A stretch of DNA of 24,974 bases, taken from IMG/VR virus record IMGVR_UViG_2778261162_000009; one strand, written 5' to 3'. A model generated the notes under the pieces. That model was given only the letters and a program-made list of their open reading frames with translations. It was not told where the DNA came from and ran no database searches. Of the stretch, positions 1-13,829 are shown piece by piece. The stretch is from a virus. Lineage: Duplodnaviria; Heunggongvirae; Uroviricota; Caudoviricetes. A program made the position numbers and the translations under genes. Each line of letters begins with the position of its first letter. Within the stretch, counting starts at the first letter, position 1.

Positions 1-1002
1 TTACCCTCTATTGTCAAAAGGGTTCAATTCAACAGCAGCCTCTAAATGACCTGGAGCAAAATGCGCATAACGCATAGTCATTTTTATATCGCTATGCCCC
101 AGTATTTTTTGCAACACAAGAATATTTCCGCCCCGCATCATAAAATGACTGGCAAACGTGTGACGTAGCACATGAGTTAATTGCCCATCAGGAAGCTCGA
201 TCTTCGCTCTCTTAATTGCAGCGTCAAAAGCCTCATAACATGGTGAAAATAGCGCTCCTCGTTTTTTAGGAAGCATAGCCTGCAATTGAGGTGAAATCGG
301 TACAGTGCGGTTCTTCTTTCCTTTAGTTTTAACAAATGTGATTCGACCGGGCAGTACTTGAGATTGCTTTAATCCTTCTGCTTCACTCCACCGAGCACCC
401 GTCGCAAGCCCAATACGGACAACAACCCCCAAATCTTTATTCCGTGACTCATCACACGCAATCAGAAGGCGCTCAATCTCATCTACATACAGAAACGCCA
501 GTTCCTTTTCTTCCTCACGAAACTTGCGAATACCAGTCAGGGGGTTTTCACCAGACCACTCCCCAAGGCGCTTCAGTTCGGCAAAAACAGCATGTAGATA
601 TGACTGCTCGCGATTAACGGTTGCTTCACTAAGTTTTTTCTTCCCCTTGGGATTCCATTCTCCTGATAGCCTTCTTTCCCGATAAGTAGCAAACATATTT
701 TTGTCAAACTGAGAAGCAAATGGATCTCCCAGCCTGGAACAAATCGCCTCAAGTTTGACTTTGCGCTCTGCACCAGAGGACAAGGTTTTACCGTACATCT
801 CAAACCAACGAGCAATCAACTCAGAAAGACGAGGACCAGAACCATCTTGAAACTCGTCTCCAACTCTACTATTCATTAAACGGCGCTCATAAGAGAGCGC
901 CTCACTTTTTGTCGCAAACTGTTTACGAATGCGTTTTCCCGATACCCCGTAGGGATAACATTCGCAAAGCCATTTACCTGATGGAATCTTACGAACCGAC
1001 AT
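1..1002 (-). CDS. int: Tyrosine-recombinase integrase (P2 Int family), 333 aa; stop codon sits at the window edge
   Basis: ORF translation has integrase-like C-terminal catalytic region (…HVLRHTFASHF…MRYAHF…); position next to the repressor as in P2/186 prophages. Confidence 0.88.
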   Translation of the reverse strand: MSVRKIPSGKWLCECYPYGVSGKRIRKQFATKSEALSYERRLMNSRVGDEFQDGSGPRLSELIARWFEMYGKTLSSGAERKVKLEAICSRLGDPFASQFDKNMFATYRERRLSGEWNPKGKKKLSEATVNREQSYLHAVFAELKRLGEWSGENPLTGIRKFREEEKELAFLYVDEIERLLIACDESRNKDLGVVVRIGLATGARWSEAEGLKQSQVLPGRITFVKTKGKKNRTVPISPQLQAMLPKKRGALFSPCYEAFDAAIKRAKIELPDGQLTHVLRHTFASHFMMRGGNILVLQKILGHSDIKMTMRYAHFAPGHLEAAVELNPFDNRG

Positions 1003-5903: not shown

Positions 5904-6293
5904 ATGATTGACGCTCATGACTTCACAAGATGGGTGCGCACACAGGACACCCGTCTGGCTCCCGTTCTTCAGGGATTATTTGATCTCTACATCCGTGGCC
6001 GTGACAACAGAGCACGCACCACAAAACCAGAGAATGCAGACACCCTTTATTTCACAGTAGACGACTGCTACCGCGTGGACTTCACACCACACGGGCTGGC
6101 GTTGCACTGCCTGACACCACACGGAGGATCACTGCTAGCGTATTACGACTCCCCGGCCTCCGTATTTGCGGCAATGCTGGCGCATTGCACTGCTGGCGGG
6201 TGTGCCTCGCTGAGTGAATACACCGCTGAATTTAACCGCCTTTCTGCCCTCTTCTCGCAGGAGTGGCAGCGCGTGACGGGATACCAGCCATGA
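5904..6293 (+). CDS. Hypothetical early protein, 129 aa
   Basis: ORF immediately upstream of and overlapping gene A start. Confidence 0.5.
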   Translation: MIDAHDFTRWVRTQDTRLAPVLQGLFDLYIRGRDNRARTTKPENADTLYFTVDDCYRVDFTPHGLALHCLTPHGGSLLAYYDSPASVFAAMLAHCTAGGCASLSEYTAEFNRLSALFSQEWQRVTGYQP

Positions 6294-9130
6294 GTGAGTT
6301 TGCATGGAGCTGGAATGAACCACGGCCAGCCATTGATCCGGCCAGATTTACGGAGCACAGGCAGGAAACTGAAACCGACCTGCAACGCGCCATCCGTTAC
6401 TACCTTGAGGCAGACAAAAAGGCTCTGGAAGAACAGGAAGCGAAGGAGGAAGCCTTTTTCGCACAATCCACCGTGGGTAAAAAACTCATGGCATCCCTTG
6501 AGGAAGCCGGACAGCGTGAAAAGCTGGCACAAAGCATCATCAGCAATCGTCAGGCAACAGAACAAGACCCGGTGGCCCGTGCTTTTGCCACACTGAAGGT
6601 GCTTCCCGTTTATCTGCGTGAACCTCTGAGCCACCACCTCTCTTTCCTGCGCAAAAAACAGGAAGCCGATCGCCAGAAAGGCAAAAAGAGCTGGCAGGCT
6701 GAACGCTACGCGCGCGGAACCCTGCGCAAAATATTCGAACGTCTGGACCGCACCGATCACCGCTGGCTGACACCGGGTTATCGCTCCCTTGCCGGACGCG
6801 AACGCCTGGACGATTTGCTTTACCTGCCGCAGCTCAACAAACACCAGATACAGACGCTGGCCACCATGACGGCGGCGATGTTCAGCAGCACCTTCGAAAA
6901 ACTCTGCGATGGCTTTGGCGCGACTGATGGCGAACTGACCATGGATGTAACGCTGAAGGCGTATCAGATGCTGGCCCGCATGGCGTTACACCTGCACGCC
7001 ATGCCTCCACATTATGACGCACTGACAACAGACAAAGACCGGAGGAACGAACCGGACACGGAGCTGCTGCCGGGCGCAATCCTTCGCCTGACCTGTGCGG
7101 AATGGTGGAAACGCAAACTGTGGCTGTTACGTTGCGAGTGGAGAGAAGAACAACTCCGCGCCGCCTGTCTGGTTTCCAGAAAAACATCACCCTATCTGAG
7201 CCAGGACGCGTTAAGCGAGTTTCGCGCACAGCGCGAGAAAACACGCGATTTCCTGAAAAGTTTCATGCTGGAAAATGAAGACGGGTTCACGATTGATCTC
7301 GAGACGGTGTATTACGCGGGAGTAAGTAACCCGGTTCACCGTAAGGCAGAAATGATGGCCACCATGAAGGGACTGGAACTTCTGGCCGAAGCCCGTGGCG
7401 ACAGAGCGGTGTTTCTGACTGTCACCTGCCCGTCAAAATACCACGCAACAACGGAGAACGGTCATCCGAACCCCAAATGGAACGGGGCCACCATGCGCGA
7501 CTCCAGCGATTACCTGGTTAACACGTTTTTTGCGGCGGTCCGCAAAAAACTGAACCGCGACGGTCTGCGCTGGTATGGCATCCGCACGGTGGAGCCTCAC
7601 CATGACGGCACTGTGCACTGGCACATGATGGTCTTTGCACATCCGGACGAGATTGAAACCATCGTGTCCCACGTCTGCGATATTGCCATTCAGGAAGACC
7701 GCCACGAGCTGGGCGATGACATAACTCCGCGTTTTAAGGCGGAGTACGTAGACGGCTCAAAAGGCACACCAACCAGCTACATCGCCACCTACATCGGAAA
7801 GAACCTGGACAGCCGCGCCGTGGATGGCATCGACCCGAAAACGGGCAAGCCACGCGTTGACCACGAAACCGGAAAATCAATGGCCGAGAGCGTGGAACGC
7901 GCCATCGGCTGGGCGCGCCTTCACCGGGTCCGCCAGTTCCAGTTCTTTGGTATCCCCTCCCGTCAGGTGTGGCGTGAACTGCGTCGCCTTGCCAGCCAGA
8001 TGGCACGCAACCCGGAAGGCCCGCAACGGCTGAAGGATGACGCAATGGACGCGGTACTCGCTGCCGCTGATGCCGGATGTTTTGCCACCTACATTGAGAA
8101 ACAGGGTGGCGTACTTGTTCCACGCAAGGACTACCTGATTCGCACCGCCTACGACCTCGCAGATGAGCTGAACGATTACGGCGAACAGAGCGTACAGATT
8201 TACGGGATCTGGTCACCACTCATCGGGGAGTCTTCCCGTGTGTGCACACATCCGGATAACTGGAAGCTGGTAAGACGTAAACCGGAAGCGGAAGACAGCG
8301 CCCGCGAAAATGGTTTTGACCTTCAGGGCGGCCCTGCCGCCCCTTGGACTCGTGGCAATAACTGTCCCCGTGTACAGGAAACGGACAACAACGGGACAGA
8401 ACAGCCGGAAGAACGGCCAGCACCGTGGCCGCAGCTTCCTGACGGCGTTGATGTGGATGAATGGATGCGCTCACTGAAACGGCACGAACGCCGGGCGCTG
8501 ATGCGTTCGCTTCGTGACAAACAGGCAAAAAACAGCAGTGATGAAATGCAGAGCTGGACACAGAGCCGCAAACAGCAGCGGCCTTTGCCTGATAACTACG
8601 AATTACTCGCTAAAGAATGGCGGGAATCTGCCGAATCTCTCGGCCTGCATATCGGTGAACAGCAGATGCAGCACCTGTTACGGGGCGGCAGCCTGTACGT
8701 TGACGGCAGCATCATTGCACCGCAGGGATTTGAAATTGTACGCAAACCGGATACCCGCCCGGACAGCCGAATCACGCAGCTCTGGCAGCGCCTGAGCCGT
8801 AATCACGGCGTAAGCAGCACAGAGATCCGCCATAACCCGGTCGCCAGCTATCTGGAACAACTGGGGGCATCAGACCCCGAAGCCGCCGCACGTCTGGCAT
8901 CCACACTTCAGCAGGACCAGAACACCATGAAAACCCCCGTTACCGTGCTTTCTGACATGCTGCGCGCCATCCGTGACGCAGAGCACGCACAGAGAATCAG
9001 TGAAACCACTGAACGCGCCCACCGCAAAGCAGACCTGCTGCGGGGTAGCCTGACCAGTGGAAACAAAAAACAGACAGAAACGGGACTCACAAATCCCGTA
9101 AATGAGCAAAAAACGCGCCGCGATATATGA
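6290..9130 (+). CDS. A: Replication initiation protein, P2 gpA-like rolling-circle endonuclease, about 946 aa
   Basis: Motif VEPHHDGTVHWHMMVF (HxH metal-binding motif of gpA family) and YIATYIGKN (catalytic Tyr region); start ATG 6290 overlaps upstream stop. Confidence 0.88.
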   Translation: MSEFAWSWNEPRPAIDPARFTEHRQETETDLQRAIRYYLEADKKALEEQEAKEEAFFAQSTVGKKLMASLEEAGQREKLAQSIISNRQATEQDPVARAFATLKVLPVYLREPLSHHLSFLRKKQEADRQKGKKSWQAERYARGTLRKIFERLDRTDHRWLTPGYRSLAGRERLDDLLYLPQLNKHQIQTLATMTAAMFSSTFEKLCDGFGATDGELTMDVTLKAYQMLARMALHLHAMPPHYDALTTDKDRRNEPDTELLPGAILRLTCAEWWKRKLWLLRCEWREEQLRAACLVSRKTSPYLSQDALSEFRAQREKTRDFLKSFMLENEDGFTIDLETVYYAGVSNPVHRKAEMMATMKGLELLAEARGDRAVFLTVTCPSKYHATTENGHPNPKWNGATMRDSSDYLVNTFFAAVRKKLNRDGLRWYGIRTVEPHHDGTVHWHMMVFAHPDEIETIVSHVCDIAIQEDRHELGDDITPRFKAEYVDGSKGTPTSYIATYIGKNLDSRAVDGIDPKTGKPRVDHETGKSMAESVERAIGWARLHRVRQFQFFGIPSRQVWRELRRLASQMARNPEGPQRLKDDAMDAVLAAADAGCFATYIEKQGGVLVPRKDYLIRTAYDLADELNDYGEQSVQIYGIWSPLIGESSRVCTHPDNWKLVRRKPEAEDSARENGFDLQGGPAAPWTRGNNCPRVQETDNNGTEQPEERPAPWPQLPDGVDVDEWMRSLKRHERRALMRSLRDKQAKNSSDEMQSWTQSRKQQRPLPDNYELLAKEWRESAESLGLHIGEQQMQHLLRGGSLYVDGSIIAPQGFEIVRKPDTRPDSRITQLWQRLSRNHGVSSTEIRHNPVASYLEQLGASDPEAAARLASTLQQDQNTMKTPVTVLSDMLRAIRDAEHAQRISETTERAHRKADLLRGSLTSGNKKQTETGLTNPVNEQKTRRDI

Positions 9131-9175
9131 AGCGCGCACAAAACAGGCAAAAGCGGGATTTAAAAATCCTGTAAC
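9080..9175. promoter_or_regulatory. Two related palindromic sites (ACGGGActcacaaaTCCCGT at 9080-9099; GGATTTaaAAATCC at 9156-9169) upstream of parM-like gene; candidate ParR operator/centromere
   Basis: Direct repeat of about 20 bp, each copy internally palindromic, sharing AAATCC(C/T)GTAA; second copy about 35 bp upstream of parM start. Confidence 0.35.
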
Positions 9176-9206
9176 CGATTAATTAATCAACATAAGGAAA
9201 AGCGAC

Positions 9207-10166
9207 ATGAAAATTTGTATCGACGACGGCTCCACCAACATCAAGCTGGCATGGACTGAGAACGGCAAACGCCGCAACGCCATCAGCCCGAACAGCTTCA
9301 AGTCGGAATGGTCTGCGCCGTTCGGTGGCACGCAGCCCGCGAACTACATGCTTGATGGCGTGCGCTATGGCTTTGATCCGGTCAGCGATCGCTTTGTCCA
9401 GACGACCGACACGCAATACCAGTACAGCGATGTGAATGTCATTGCCATTCATCACGCGCTGGTCAAATCAGGCATCACGCCACAGGAGGTGGATGTGGTT
9501 GTCACCCTGCCACTGAGCGAGTATTTCGACACAAACGCACAGCCGGACATGGCCAACATCAGCCGCAAAAAAGCGAACGTTATGCGCCCGGTGGAGTACC
9601 AGAACGGCGAAGCATTCACTATCCGTAACGTACGGGTTATGCCTGAATCCATTCCGGCTGGCTTTAAGGCACTGGCTGACATGAGTCCGTTTGAATCCCT
9701 GCTGATTGTGGATTTGGGCGGAACCACGCTGGATGTGGCAAAGGTTCAGGGGCAACTGGCAGGTATTAGCCAGGTGTTTTGCGATCCACACGTAGGCGTT
9801 TCTCTGATGGCCGATGCCGTACTGTCGGTGATGGCCACTAACGGTATGCGTACCAGTCACCACATCGCCAATACCATTATCGAACATCGCCATGATGAAG
9901 CCTGGCTGCGCCAGCACATCCACAATGACGCGCATTACGCCAGCCTGATGGCGGTTATTCGTGAAAAGGAAGAAACACTGAAACAACGCGTGATCCGCGC
10001 GCTGGCGGTTTTTTCGGGTTACGGGCGGGTGATGGTTGTCGGTGGCGGGGCGGAGATTGTGGCACCCGCTATCCGCGAAGCCTGCGGAGTTAATGCGACT
10101 TTCATCGCGGACGGGGTGCCACAGTTTGCTCTGGTTAATGGGCTGTACGCAATGGACAAGGAGTAA
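9207..10166 (+). CDS. parM: ParM/StbA-like actin-type ATPase, 319 aa
   Basis: Strong resemblance to plasmid R1 ParM from memory: MKICIDDGSTNIKLAW, SPNSF, YSDVNV…HHAL, VMPESIPAG, DLGGTTLD, VGGGAE, LVNG. Confidence 0.85.
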   Translation: MKICIDDGSTNIKLAWTENGKRRNAISPNSFKSEWSAPFGGTQPANYMLDGVRYGFDPVSDRFVQTTDTQYQYSDVNVIAIHHALVKSGITPQEVDVVVTLPLSEYFDTNAQPDMANISRKKANVMRPVEYQNGEAFTIRNVRVMPESIPAGFKALADMSPFESLLIVDLGGTTLDVAKVQGQLAGISQVFCDPHVGVSLMADAVLSVMATNGMRTSHHIANTIIEHRHDEAWLRQHIHNDAHYASLMAVIREKEETLKQRVIRALAVFSGYGRVMVVGGGAEIVAPAIREACGVNATFIADGVPQFALVNGLYAMDKE

Positions 10167-10170
10167 ACCA

Positions 10171-10485
10171 ATGACGACACCAACCAGACGGATAAGTTTC
10201 TATCTGAAGCCAGCTGCAGTCAAGAGTGAACGGGAAGCGTGTAATTATCTCGACAGCCTGCCAGCCTCCGAACGCAGCCGCGCGCAACGCGCGGCATTTC
10301 TGGCTGGACTGGCACTCATTAAAAACGATCCTGCCTTTGCTTACTGGCTGGCTGAATGGTCAGAGGGGGAAAATATGCCTGCCAACAATCACATATGGGG
10401 CTGGCATAACAGCGAGCCTGCTGGTTGCAAAAATCAGAATATAAGTCAAATAAAAAAGAATATTCAGGAATTTTTTCCTGAATGA
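10171..10485 (+). CDS. parR: ParR/StbB-like partition adaptor, about 104 aa
   Basis: RRISFYLKP…LDSLPASERSRAQRAAFLAGLAL matches ParR N-terminal RHH region; AGGAG SD; directly downstream of parM. Confidence 0.65.
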   Translation: MTTPTRRISFYLKPAAVKSEREACNYLDSLPASERSRAQRAAFLAGLALIKNDPAFAYWLAEWSEGENMPANNHIWGWHNSEPAGCKNQNISQIKKNIQEFFPE

Positions 10486-10490
10486 TCACA

Positions 10491-10516
10491 AAAAGCATGG
10501 CTTTCGCCATGCTTTT
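10491..10516. terminator. Bidirectional intrinsic terminator (AAAAGCATGGC-tttc-GCCATGCTTTT)
   Basis: Perfect hairpin flanked by A-run and T-run. Confidence 0.6.
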
Positions 10517-10528
10517 AAATATCAAATA

Positions 10529-10678
10529 TCAGCTTCGCACTAGAAACGCCCAAGCTTTCCAGCCATACTCATGAGCATCCAGCTTTCGACCAGAATCACC
10601 ACGAACCTTACGGTATCGGCAAAACTGCCAACGAAATCCTTTCGGAGCCGGTTTTTTTACAATTGATTTCAAAGCCAT
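10529..10678 (-). CDS. Unannotated small ORF, 49 aa, basic (MALKSIVKKPAPKGFRWQFCRYRKVRGDSGRKLDAHEYGWKAWAFLVRS)
   Basis: Consensus SD AAGGAGGTGA upstream; lies between two terminators; below ORF-track cutoff. Confidence 0.3.
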   Translation of the reverse strand: MALKSIVKKPAPKGFRWQFCRYRKVRGDSGRKLDAHEYGWKAWAFLVRS

Positions 10679-10807
10679 CCATAATCACCTCCTTACTGAG
10701 AATGATTTTTACCTTGATTATCTGCCTGGATTGACTAGAATCACAGTTGTACATGCAAAACATCAAGGTGATGATATTTCTCAGACTATCATTTCTTTGT
10801 GTTGAAA

Positions 10808-10837
10808 AGCCCCTGACGGTTGGCCCCGTCAGGGGCT
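10808..10837. terminator. Intrinsic terminator after the antitoxin gene (AGCCCCTGACGG…CCGTCAGGGGCT)
   Basis: 12-bp perfect stem; U-rich tract follows on minus strand. Confidence 0.6.
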
Positions 10838-10843
10838 TAATAT

Positions 10844-11161
10844 TTATGCAACCTGACAGGAATGTTCTGCCGTCGCAGTAACAACCCCACCGGAATACCC
10901 AAACTTAAAATCCCACCCCAGGATGTTTAGCATGATAAACAGTCGATCAATGGTATGATTATCTAACTTACCATTAATGATTTCGCTTACTCTTGGTTGG
11001 GTAGTTTCCAGCAATTCAGCAGCTTCTCGCTGGGTAAGACCGCGCTCCTGAATCATTTTTCGGATAATAACCATTAATTGGGCCCGGATGTGTTTATCAC
11101 TAGCTTCATTTACAGAGCTACTTGATGACGCATAAGGGTTTTTGACTACGACGAATTCCAT
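10844..11161 (-). CDS. HigA-like XRE-HTH antitoxin, 105 aa
   Basis: HTH pattern GLTQREAAELLETTQPRVSEIINGKL; downstream of Gp49-family toxin gene. Confidence 0.7.
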   Translation of the reverse strand: MEFVVVKNPYASSSSSVNEASDKHIRAQLMVIIRKMIQERGLTQREAAELLETTQPRVSEIINGKLDNHTIDRLFIMLNILGWDFKFGYSGGVVTATAEHSCQVA

Positions 11162-11231
11162 AACTCTCCAGCCTTAATCAGCGATGTTGCTGACATTGAT
11201 TATGTTATATCAGATTTGAGATACCTGCAAG

Positions 11232-11633
11232 CTATCTTAAGCCATTTTTACGACGATACTCCACTAATTGTTTGTATCTTGCGGCAGCTGTCTCATATTC
11301 TTTTTTTGACACACCATTTGTCTTTTTCTTAAATGTATGAAGTATGTAAACAGACTCCGCAAATTTCGCAACGTAAATCATACGATAAGAATCACTACTC
11401 TTGATGGTTAATTGCATTGCGTAGCGACCAATCGTTTCCCGCATTGATTTTTTTTGAGCAGGTGGAACCCCCAAGGCATCATCACCATCCACTGGAAAAT
11501 CGAAACTGTCGAAAGAATGAGGACAATCGCTCTGCAGTGCAACAAGCTCAAAATTTATCCTTTCTCGAACAGCTTCAGGATAACTATCAATTTGTTTCTG
11601 AATTTTATCATTCCAATATGTGATGTCTTTCAC
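11232..11633 (-). CDS. HigB/RelE-superfamily toxin of the Gp49-like family, 133 aa
   Basis: C-terminal signature RMIYVAKFAESVYILHTFKKKTNGVSKKEYETAAARYKQL; GTG start with GAGAGG SD; toxin-first order typical of HigBA. Confidence 0.65.
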   Translation of the reverse strand: MKDITYWNDKIQKQIDSYPEAVRERINFELVALQSDCPHSFDSFDFPVDGDDALGVPPAQKKSMRETIGRYAMQLTIKSSDSYRMIYVAKFAESVYILHTFKKKTNGVSKKEYETAAARYKQLVEYRRKNGLR

Positions 11634-12243
11634 TCAGAACCTCTCACCAACGTAACCGAACGAAATTATACAAAGATCTTTTTTCGCTTAAATACATCCA
11701 CTGAACGTTGATTTTAATGCAAGATTGTGCACAAATTTGCACAATTTTTTTGAACGACTTTTTGCCCTTCCGGCCCGCGTGGCGGCTGGATCCGCCAAGG
11801 ATCCGTGCGTGCACAAAAAAACGCGTTTTTTCTGCGCGCAGGTGACGGGGGAACAGCCCGCGTTTCAGGGGGTAAATAGCATCCCCTGAACGATGTCGCA
11901 GCGACACGACAGAATGGCTGTATTTCTCACGCTGAGCGTGAAAAAGACGTGAGGGTTTTTGATTTGATGGGGTGGCAGATAAGGCCGTCAAAATCGCACT
12001 GAGGCGGCGAGAACATGCAGTCAGCGCGATGGGATTGCGTAAGAGCCTGACCGTCGATGATGGCAATAAGCTGGAAGGCGTCGTGAAATTATCTGATTGA
12101 TACAGGAGCTGGAGAGTCGGGGCATAAATTTTTTATGCCCCGGCGAAGCAGCAGACAAGCGAAGCGCGTCAGTGATACGGCACCTTGCCGACCATACTTC
12201 ATAAGTGCAAAATACGAGCAAAGAAATCAATGGAGGCTGTCTT

Positions 12244-12768
12244 ATGGTCATTAATTACAAGCAGTTAAGAGAAAAACGGGAGCAGGTAAAGGAGAGCTTT
12301 CGCCGCAATGAAGATCTGACCCCGCTTGTACGCCTTGCCCAGGGCATTGTTGATGCTTATGAAATCTCGCTGGAGCTGCCATCACAGACCTGGACAGATA
12401 GCGATGGTAATCGCCAGCATTACGTTTCATGCGGACTGGAAGCAGCCGAAGGATTTCGCAGAATGCCTTTATCCCAGATCCCTGCCGCTACCCCCAAAGC
12501 ACGGGGCAGCAATGATGAGCGAAAACTGACTTTTAGTATTGAAACGGTGGTTGACGACACACCTGGCGAAGTCGCGTTCGTGCACACTCCTGTTTCGATC
12601 GCAATGTATAACGATGAAATACAGGTTCGCGTTAATAATAATATCGTGCCACTTAAAGAAGGTAATTCACCCTACACCACCGTTTGTGAAGCCATTCAAT
12701 ATTACGTTCTCTCTGAAATTGATAATCTCAAGCCTGACGGCACCCAGAAAATGGTTCAACTCTGGTAA
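12244..12768 (+). CDS. Orphan hypothetical protein, 174 aa (cargo gene between cos region and portal gene)
   Basis: ATG 12244 with GGAGG 7 nt upstream; convergent with Q; no recognisable domain. Confidence 0.6.
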   Translation: MVINYKQLREKREQVKESFRRNEDLTPLVRLAQGIVDAYEISLELPSQTWTDSDGNRQHYVSCGLEAAEGFRRMPLSQIPAATPKARGSNDERKLTFSIETVVDDTPGEVAFVHTPVSIAMYNDEIQVRVNNNIVPLKEGNSPYTTVCEAIQYYVLSEIDNLKPDGTQKMVQLW

Positions 12769-12773
12769 AAAGG

Positions 12774-12800
12774 ACAGCCCCATCACGGGGCTGTTTTTTC
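12774..12800 (+). terminator. Intrinsic terminator (ACAGCCCC-atcac-GGGGCTGT then TTTTTT), overlapping Q stop
   Basis: 8-bp stem and T6 tract seen directly. Confidence 0.6.
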
Positions 12801-13829
12801 ATCAAGAAGAGCATAAGAGTTAAAACGGATCACCTCTTCGCCAAGCCAGTCATTGATGTGCTTCATGGCCTCCATAACGGGCATCAGCTCGTTAATTGCG
12901 TAAACCCGCGCGGCCTTCTCCACATCACCAAACGCACTTTTTTCACCCGGCATCGCCCCCATCAGTTGCGGCGGAACGCGGTGCGCAGCCAGCACATCAT
13001 CACGGGATGCCGCCTTAACATTCATGAACTCATCCTTTGCAGTGATCTGCTGGAACGGCAAAATTTGCACACCTTCTTTGCCCCCGTTGGGCGCATGAAT
13101 GAGCACATTCTTAAACGCACCACCACCACGTGCACCCTGTAGCGTTTCTTTCAGGGAGTCCATGCTTTCGCGGTTTACCTGCGCTGCACCGATGTAGATG
13201 ATGCACCCGGCGTGGGATCCGTTGTCGTAATACAGTTTTCTGAACATGTCCGCCGAATGAGACAGGCTGGCCGAGAGTAATGCGCCGAGATATTCCGGCA
13301 TGCCGTAGATTTCCTGGTTAATATCCGGATTCATCAGGTGGCACACTTTGCCAGGGCGAAACTGGAACGCGTCCTTGCCATCCTGCACATACCACCATGA
13401 TTCAAGATCGCTTCCGCGTCGCATGTATTTCGCCAGGGCGTGCCGTAATTTAAGCGGTTCACCGAGCATATTGCTTCGAAGCTCAAGGAATGCGTTACCG
13501 AACACAAACCAGTCCAGCGCCAGCGCCGAGAAATCCTGCCGGGAAAGCAGCGGGTGCGGAATATAGCAACCGAGCAATACATTGCGCTTAAAGTAAAGCG
13601 CAGACTGATGCCAGGACGTTTGCCGGGCAGCTCTTGCCAGACCGTACCAGTCCACCGGGGTTTCATACCACCGCCCGTTATCAGCACAGTACATATTATC
13701 CAGCAGGTCATGCCCGGTCAGGCGATAAGGACCATCAAATGTGAATGCACTGAGCGACGATTCTTTCCTGAGCGCATCAGCGAGATCAATGCGTGAACTC
13801 ATGCGCACTTTTTTATTTTTTCTGCTCAT
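12783..13829 (-). CDS. Q: Portal protein, P2 gpQ-like, 348 aa
   Basis: Size and sequence resemblance to P2 gpQ; ATGA overlap with terminase gene; conserved synteny. Confidence 0.88.
   Translation of the reverse strand: MSRKNKKVRMSSRIDLADALRKESSLSAFTFDGPYRLTGHDLLDNMYCADNGRWYETPVDWYGLARAARQTSWHQSALYFKRNVLLGCYIPHPLLSRQDFSALALDWFVFGNAFLELRSNMLGEPLKLRHALAKYMRRGSDLESWWYVQDGKDAFQFRPGKVCHLMNPDINQEIYGMPEYLGALLSASLSHSADMFRKLYYDNGSHAGCIIYIGAAQVNRESMDSLKETLQGARGGGAFKNVLIHAPNGGKEGVQILPFQQITAKDEFMNVKAASRDDVLAAHRVPPQLMGAMPGEKSAFGDVEKAARVYAINELMPVMEAMKHINDWLGEEVIRFNSYALLDEKTAP

Follow-up and report, generated by a model that had tools for sequence, protein, structure and literature searches.

Among the closest described counterparts of the gene pair studied here are the plasmid partition systems ParMRC (StbA/StbB) of R1 and par1 of pB171, in which a centromere region is followed by parM and parR, in that order. 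Segregation systems of comparable make-up are also known from elements which normally reside in the chromosome. The ParM-type system SrpMRC of the SXT/R391 elements is expressed with int, only together with the excision and replication functions, and stabilises the excised circle while this replicates by the rolling-circle mode (Carraro et al. 2015, PMC4489591). Similarly, the AlpAC/alpS system of the CGP3 prophage of Corynebacterium glutamicum combines an actin-like ATPase with a DNA-binding adaptor whose recognition sites lie in the region upstream of it. Both proteins are induced early after excision and link the circular phage DNA to filaments, and efficient replication of this DNA depends on them (Donovan et al. 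2015, PMC4446434). Here we analysed a parM-parR gene pair (parMR) at positions 9207-10485 of a 24,974-nucleotide stretch of Caudoviricetes DNA (IMG/VR record IMGVR_UViG_2778261162_000009, in full length referred to as the window), which on the evidence of its sequence consists of plasmid-type ParM/ParR DNA segregation genes in an integrated P2-like prophage.

The presence of ParMR in P88-like phages has already been annotated and discussed in print: the partition system of this phage group was noted, with speculation on an episomal state, in two earlier studies (Pfeifer 2021, PMC7969092; Rousset 2022, PMC9122126), the first of which flagged P88 in a screen for phage-plasmids. For what reason partition genes are retained by a phage that integrates is a real question, albeit not a new one. 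What is added here is that parMR is fixed beside gene A and bounds the variable hotspot, that cassettes at the same position occur in P2-like prophages of other Enterobacterales, that parR is far more polymorphic than parM, and that the likely centromere is not of the R1 iteron type.

ParM and ParR of the window

The initial annotation of the window had described a 319-amino acid (aa) protein resembling R1 ParM from end to end and followed by a ParR-like adaptor, within an integrase-bearing P2-like prophage, and profile searches for ParM/StbA and ParR confirmed these assignments, with matches to profiles and structures that are far beyond chance. The parM gene (9207..10166, plus strand) encodes an actin-fold partition ATPase of 319 aa, of which residues 1-157 match the Pfam domain StbA_N (PF06406, E 9.8e-82) and residues 159-316 the ParM C-terminal domain (PF21523, E 6.3e-69). 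The top match among solved structures is R1 ParM (1mwk, E 8e-93, residues 2-316 aligned on 2-318), and a BLASTP alignment over 318 residues shows 47% identical and 68% positive positions. All motifs for nucleotide binding, those for phosphate as well as for adenosine (IDDGSTNIKL, VMPESIPAG, DLGGTTLD and VVGGGAE), are intact, and in the PHROGs collection the protein matches phrog_691, 'partition protein'.

The parR (stbB) gene (10171..10485, plus strand) starts with the ATG at 10171, 4 nt past the parM stop codon, with its frame ending at 10485 in the list of open reading frames (ORFs), and encodes a ribbon-helix-helix adaptor of 104 aa. It matches PF10784 (Plasmid_stab_B, the StbB/ParR family; E 9.4e-26), phrog_2515 (E 9e-48) and, weakly, the structure of pB171 ParR (2jd3, E 3e-3). 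When phage ParRs were aligned with R1 ParR, the N-terminal strand-helix-helix region (TRRISFYLKP...) was found to be conserved, and a C-terminal KNxxxLFP motif with an invariant asparagine was present in all phage ParRs aligned. This motif lines up with KKNAMKLIN of R1 ParR, the segment which in R1 binds ParM, and the window ParR keeps such a KKNxxxL/F tail at its C-terminus (IKKNIQEFFPE). The likeness to R1 and pB171 thus covers the order of centromere region, parM and parR, the full length of ParM with both domains and all nucleotide-binding motifs, and the family of ParR, whereas the genetic surroundings differ, as the carrier of the window pair is a P2-like phage that integrates, and the pair follows immediately on gene A, the initiator of rolling-circle replication.

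These surroundings are clearly those of a P2-like prophage. An intact tyrosine integrase gene (1..1002, minus strand; 333 aa; Pfam Int_N, E 5e-32, and Phage_integrase, E 2.5e-22) is positioned like int of P88, gene A (6263..9130, plus strand) for the rolling-circle replication endonuclease matches Phage_GPA (E 1.5e-129) with 31% identity to A of P2, and P2-type portal, terminase, scaffold and capsid genes are found downstream of parMR and a toxin/helix-turn-helix (HTH) pair. The nick site of P2 is annotated inside gene A (NC_001895 position 29892, sequence GCCGCGCC/TCGGAGTCCTGTCAATAACTGT), and a clear homologue is present in the window at about 8336, approximately 0.8 kb upstream of parMR. The codons homologous to the P2 ori, where the window has GCCGCCCCTTGGACTCGTGGCAATAACTGT, suggest a predicted ori at 8320..8365 (plus strand) as the nick site of the A protein. 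Because this ori homologue lies inside gene A, the ori, A, the candidate centromere described below, parM and parR would form one compact module.

Conservation of parMR in P88-like phages and their relatives

To place the cassette, window positions 9100-10520 were used as query against 5426 complete E. coli genomes, and P88-like loci were collected from IMG/VR, phage records and genomes, giving 89 copies of parM, 86 of these with enough upstream sequence. The A-parM-parR region is 92.9-96.2% identical at the DNA level to 14 phage records of the genus Xuanwuvirus (family Peduoviridae), including P88, P884B11, 520873, 503458 and Citrobacter phiSM, with ParM identities of 95-99%, and the gene order of P88 is that of the window from int to the lysis genes. 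By A-parM-parR identity and gene order the window element is therefore assigned to Xuanwuvirus, the P88-like Peduoviridae. In the P88 record itself parM is labelled 'plasmid segregation protein ParM' and parR 'partition protein', and the PHROGs families are likewise named 'partition protein'. The window differs from these phages in its parR allele, as its ParR is only 53% identical to that of P88, and in its RelE/Gp49-HTH cargo; only 2 of the 5426 E. coli genomes matched this allele and cargo over the full query.

Among these genomes, 1303 contain parMR, at 1443 places of which 1441 are chromosomal, while the core of the P88-type gene A was found at 1538 places in 1375 genomes, which puts parMR at about 94% of the frequency of this type of gene A. 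The cassette is thus present in about one in four complete E. coli genomes, O157:H7 and ST131 strains included, and parMR of the P88-like phages represents the largest natural reservoir of ParMRC on chromosomally integrated phages. An intact ParM of 319 aa is encoded in all P88-like loci examined (89/89), and gene A ends less than 200 nt upstream of parM in 85 of the 86 loci. Downstream, 22 junction classes could be distinguished, all starting past parR, with distances from parR to the portal gene that range from 1.0 to 4.2 kb. From this it is clear that parMR is a fixed backbone module of the P88-like phages and the left border of the variable A-to-Q hotspot. Since the 22 junction classes follow parR while A and ParM are constant, the hotspot starts after parR or in its 3' part.

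The initial annotation had instead placed the pair in the accessory hotspot between A and cos, in the position of tin and old of P2, and had named a common backbone status in this phage group as evidence against its reading. The frequencies and the fixed position after A show just such a status and do not support a placement as hotspot cargo: parMR is a correctly annotated, known and common backbone module rather than an unusual acquisition, and the same A-parM-parR order recurs in four other genera. A role as variable cargo of the tin/old kind is contradicted by the intact ParM, the adjacency of A and the location of all variation past parR. The tin and old genes are found in the same stretch, from A to the portal gene, but are variable morons which in lysogens are transcribed leftward from their own promoter, whereas parMR is fixed, co-oriented with A, and situated at the left border of the variable region.

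The four genera are represented by the closest ParM homologues with less than 90% identity, from Plesiomonas (62%), Hafnia (62%), Serratia (58%) and Enterobacter (54%). In all four, the element is a P2-like prophage in which a Phage_GPA gene is followed by parM, a PF10784 ParR, varied cargo and then the portal gene. Three further ParM homologues lie outside this phage group, on an integrated plasmid-like region, an integrative and conjugative element (ICE) and a plasmid. Neighbour-joining placed the phage ParMs in two subclades, with a bootstrap support of 100/100 for each, apart from the plasmid and ICE ParMs checked. A scan of one genome per species for close ParM relatives returned three loci only. 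In a collection of 50,697 phage records, the sole other phage with a ParM homologue was D6, a P1-like element of 91 kb outside the P2-like group, with a StbA-type protein of 47.5% identity. D6 is known as an extrachromosomal phage-plasmid, and for such an element the need for partition is obvious.

With regard to selection, the two genes behave differently within the P88 group. For parM, dN/dS is 0.03-0.13 at a dS of 0.05-0.17, pointing to strong purifying selection. For parR, the 89 loci contain 46 distinct sequences in two deep allele types, with a dS of 0.55-0.87 and dN/dS of 0.09-0.31, which marks parR as an old polymorphism beside a nearly invariant parM at the edge of a recombination hotspot. 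Because parR is polymorphic and parM is not (compare 10171-10485 of the window with 9820-10131 of locus L001), the left recombination boundary of the hotspot seems to be inside parR.

Three records in this set deserve comment. A P88-like locus with a 97% identical ParM is present on a 226-kb contig deposited under the name of the Gram-positive 'Vagococcus sp. WN89Y' (NZ_JBQPOM010000071.1), which looks like contamination or a mislabelled assembly. In phage 503458 (CP025874.1) parM is found by tblastn in four pieces, with a first reading frame of 136 aa, and because this record is unannotated, sequencing indels are a more probable cause than real decay. Members of the Peduoviridae, the P88-like phages included, are known as contractile-tailed phages. 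The record of phiSM (OR565851) is classified as Xuanwuvirus, Peduoviridae, yet on the basis of electron micrographs this phage has been called a siphovirus, its tail being non-contractile (PMC6456863).

The candidate centromere and the role of parMR

A repeat search upstream of parM identified two direct repeat units of 38 nt, 73 bp apart, with a repeat score that was reached by none of 300 shuffles. The first unit (9064..9101, plus strand) has the palindrome ACGGGActcacaaaTCCCGT at 9080-9099, in the last codons of A, and is a candidate centromere unit; the second (9137..9174, plus strand), a candidate centromere or operator unit, has the palindrome GCGGGAtttaaaaaTCCTGT at 9153-9172, 35 nt upstream of the parM start codon. 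The arms of the palindromes (GGGAy...ATCCCG) are conserved among the 89 P88-like loci, while their centres are variable. A two-site layout with 72-73 bp spacing is also present in the Plesiomonas relative (score reached by 1/300 shuffles) and, more weakly, in the Hafnia relative. The Serratia and Enterobacter phages have inverted arms of 14-20 nt, 26-28 nt apart, and share the motif CAGGCAAAAnCGGGA, which unit 2 of the window has in common with the Serratia phage lineage. In R1 the promoter is flanked by two blocks of five direct 11-bp iterons, and the plasmid and ICE relatives of ParM which were checked show TCTCA repeats at a spacing of about 11 bp, but no R1-type direct iteron array was found upstream of parM in the repeat search of the window. 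We consider the two palindromes, which lie partly in A, as a candidate centromere/operator of a type other than the R1 iterons.

The window also differs from R1 and pB171 in that no clear promoter of its own was found for parMR. A consensus scan detected neither a σ70-like promoter nor a plus-strand terminator between A and parM, and for this reason parMR is probably co-transcribed with the early (Pe) operon.

Taken together, parMR is probably a working type II (ParMRC-type) segregation cassette in the replication module, which would be transcribed with the early operon and act on the extrachromosomal circle. ParR dimers would bind the two palindromic sites, which reach from the last codons of A into the leader of parM, the C-terminal tail of ParR would capture filaments of ATP-ParM, and the growing filaments would then push sister circular phage genomes apart. 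This would take place after infection and before integration, and again after excision, during A-driven rolling-circle replication into monomeric circles and up to packaging. As parMR would act while the phage genome is a transient circle, it would not maintain a stable plasmid prophage. The benefit would be a phage copy in both daughter cells, giving more lysogens and fewer losses after transient excision, and replicating circles might also be better positioned in the cell. By analogy with the systems of other integrating elements, segregation of the transient circular phage genome is most likely the role of the pair. If so, lysogenisation efficiency and prophage stability would be affected, and the principle seen in SXT/R391 and CGP3, that integrating elements need partition in short extrachromosomal phases, would extend to tailed phages.

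We regard SrpMRC as the best functional analogue of such a mechanism, as it is likewise a ParM-type system on a normally chromosomal element. It differs by its distant ParM lineage, by SrpR, which has no relationship to ParR, by its conjugative carrier element and by a function that has been shown experimentally. AlpAC, which was likened to parMR by description, shares the combination of a prophage-encoded actin-like ATPase and a DNA-binding adaptor, but belongs to another actin-like family, has the adaptor gene first, and comes from a Gram-positive host, with a phenotype of efficient replication instead of plasmid-type partition.

Several points weigh against this reading. P2 and about three quarters of the E. 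coli P2-like phages are without the system (Rousset 2022, PMC9122126), so that the life cycle of P2 can do without partition genes; the corresponding 'one fourth' of phages with the system is also taken from that study, as a blastn count with terminase genes fails because P2- and 186-type genes are too diverged in DNA. The candidate centromere, with only two palindromes, is unlike the canonical parC of R1 and pB171 with about ten direct iterons, and its sites might instead have a function for gene A, in replication or in transcription. Furthermore, no co-variation was detected between the palindrome centres and the two ParR allele types in the 89 P88-like loci. The proposed timing of expression derives solely from a consensus scan that found neither promoter nor terminator, and a weak, ParR-regulated promoter active in the lysogen is possible; the omics literature examined contained no usable expression data on the CP-933T homologue of O157:H7, and no experimental work on parMR of P88-like phages was found in the literature searched. 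Finally, the joining of the two phage ParM subclades has a bootstrap support of 51/100, and because of this value for their joint monophyly a single acquisition is not claimed.

A possible phage-plasmid state and other alternatives

The alternative which has been proposed for this group before (Pfeifer 2021, PMC7969092; Rousset 2022, PMC9122126) is that of a facultative phage-plasmid, in which ParMRC, A and ori would allow a stable low-copy plasmid prophage, for instance where attB is missing or occupied, alternating with integration. We consider this possible though unlikely. The order of ori and A followed by par does resemble the layout of a plasmid basic replicon, and circular or phage-sized records exist, though rarely: the 34,461-bp circular 'plasmid' pZ1323PEC0009-2 is a complete P88-like genome with an intact int, and the Plesiomonas relative is on a phage-sized contig of 32,167 bp with its integrase gene 142 bp from the end. 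The phage records CP025923 and CP025874 have accession numbers of the genome-project type, and may have originated as separate contigs, possibly separate replicons, in host genome assemblies. PLSDB, however, contains many phage-sized circular 'plasmids' which have P2-type capsid genes and lack this parMR, and these are no rarer than the parMR-bearing kind, so that there is no enrichment of parMR among such records, and the only phage-sized circular record with a window-type capsid gene was the single parMR record. P2-type replication makes monomeric circles, and circular records therefore do not distinguish plasmid maintenance from spontaneous induction, which from what is generally known of P2 could by itself give circular contigs. 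Of the traits of a phage-plasmid, partition genes are present, and replication falls to A, the rolling-circle initiator of P2. Gene A is, however, a lytic initiator with no known copy-number control, and a prophage existing as an extrachromosomal replicon is contradicted by the chromosomal location of all but two of the E. coli copies, by the intact integrase, and by the P88 and phiSM lysogens, which are integrated.

Segregation could also be coupled to replication. A combined model, which we regard as rather improbable, has ParMRC linked to gpA-driven rolling-circle replication instead of acting as a plain stabiliser of the plasmid kind: bound beside ori, the system would act on the HUH nickase, by stimulating it or by fixing its location, and would distribute the monomeric circles, and without a usable attB this would result in low-copy episomal lysogeny. 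About a quarter of E. coli P2-like prophages would then be conditional phage-plasmids with a non-canonical, two-palindrome centromere. A role limited to helping replication or processing, with ParM/ParR near ori stimulating or localising gpA and the replicating or packaging DNA, is unlikely. It would fit the strict adjacency of parMR to gene A and the proximity of the predicted ori, and there are parallels in R1, where TraI is bound by ParM/ParR and becomes more active as a relaxase (PMC4949242), in the requirement of CGP3 for AlpAC (PMC4446434), and in SrpMRC, which adjoins oriT on a rolling-circle-replicating ICE (PMC4489591). A contact of gpA with ParM would be pure analogy, however, all classical segregation features are kept, and P2 and 186 replicate well without parMR. 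A role in lysogenic conversion or competition, where prophage ParR/ParM would disturb the partition of incoming plasmids or related phages, or serve defence or positioning as the initial annotation had suggested, is very unlikely. The pair does adjoin a defence hotspot (Rousset 2022, PMC9122126), its ParM has 47% identity to that of R1, and parR is highly polymorphic beside an almost invariant parM. On the other hand, neither ParM nor ParR matched a defence system in PADLOC, which leaves a defence role without support, and the pair is fixed, oriented and spaced as part of an early operon, unlike tin/old. The DNA-reading N-terminal strand of ParR (TRRISFYLKP) is moreover identical in both allele types, and as the phage sites are also unlike the plasmid TCTCA iterons, cross-binding to plasmid parC is unlikely. 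That parMR is an inert relic of an old plasmid recombination and a functionless passenger is hardly credible: its retention in defective prophages such as the CP-933T-type elements of O157:H7 and its absence from most P2-like phages would agree with this, but ParM is intact throughout and under constraint, the position is conserved across genera at 54-62% ParM identity, and the packaging size limit is generally expected to work against dead weight. Segregation of the transient circle by a working cassette remains the reading that we prefer.

In the circular 34,461-bp 'plasmid' (NZ_CP148288.1), the other variable region of the phage genome has Hok/Gef and Com-methyltransferase genes. In the window, a GC-rich hairpin with flanking A and T runs (AAAAGCATGGC-tttc-GCCATGCTTTT, 10491..10516) was read from the sequence directly after parR; it scores slightly under the threshold of the terminator scan and is a probable bidirectional terminator, ending the A-parM-parR transcription unit. 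The variable A-to-Q hotspot proper, including the cos region, then covers 10529..12768, as delimited by Pfam and PHROGs matches and the junction classes past parR. It starts with an ORF for a very basic protein of 49 aa (10529-10678, minus strand), which has a strong AAGGAGG ribosome binding site and matches phrog_33859 of unknown function (E 5e-24). This is followed by genes for an HTH_37 antitoxin-like protein (10844-11161, minus strand; E 8e-19) and a Gp49/RelE-family toxin-like protein (11232-11633, minus strand; PF05973, E 3e-13), named RelE/ParE-family toxin and HTH protein in a near-identical RefSeq locus. The interval from the cos region to the portal gene contains an ORF of 187 aa (12205-12768, plus strand), which matches phrog_5091 of unknown function (E 2e-67) and has no Pfam match. 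The right border of the hotspot is the portal gene Q (12783..13829, minus strand), placed from the ORF list and the annotation of homologous loci. No RNA family was found by Rfam in 8800-12900. Both the 49-aa and the 187-aa ORF are unannotated in the near-identical RefSeq locus.

The homologues of gene A in RefSeq begin 45 nt further in than the ORF in the window, giving a protein of 940 aa. At 940-955 aa this A protein is about 190 aa longer than A of P2 (761 aa), the added C-terminal part being without a domain match, and in other P2-like phages with parMR the length of A is 785-907 aa.

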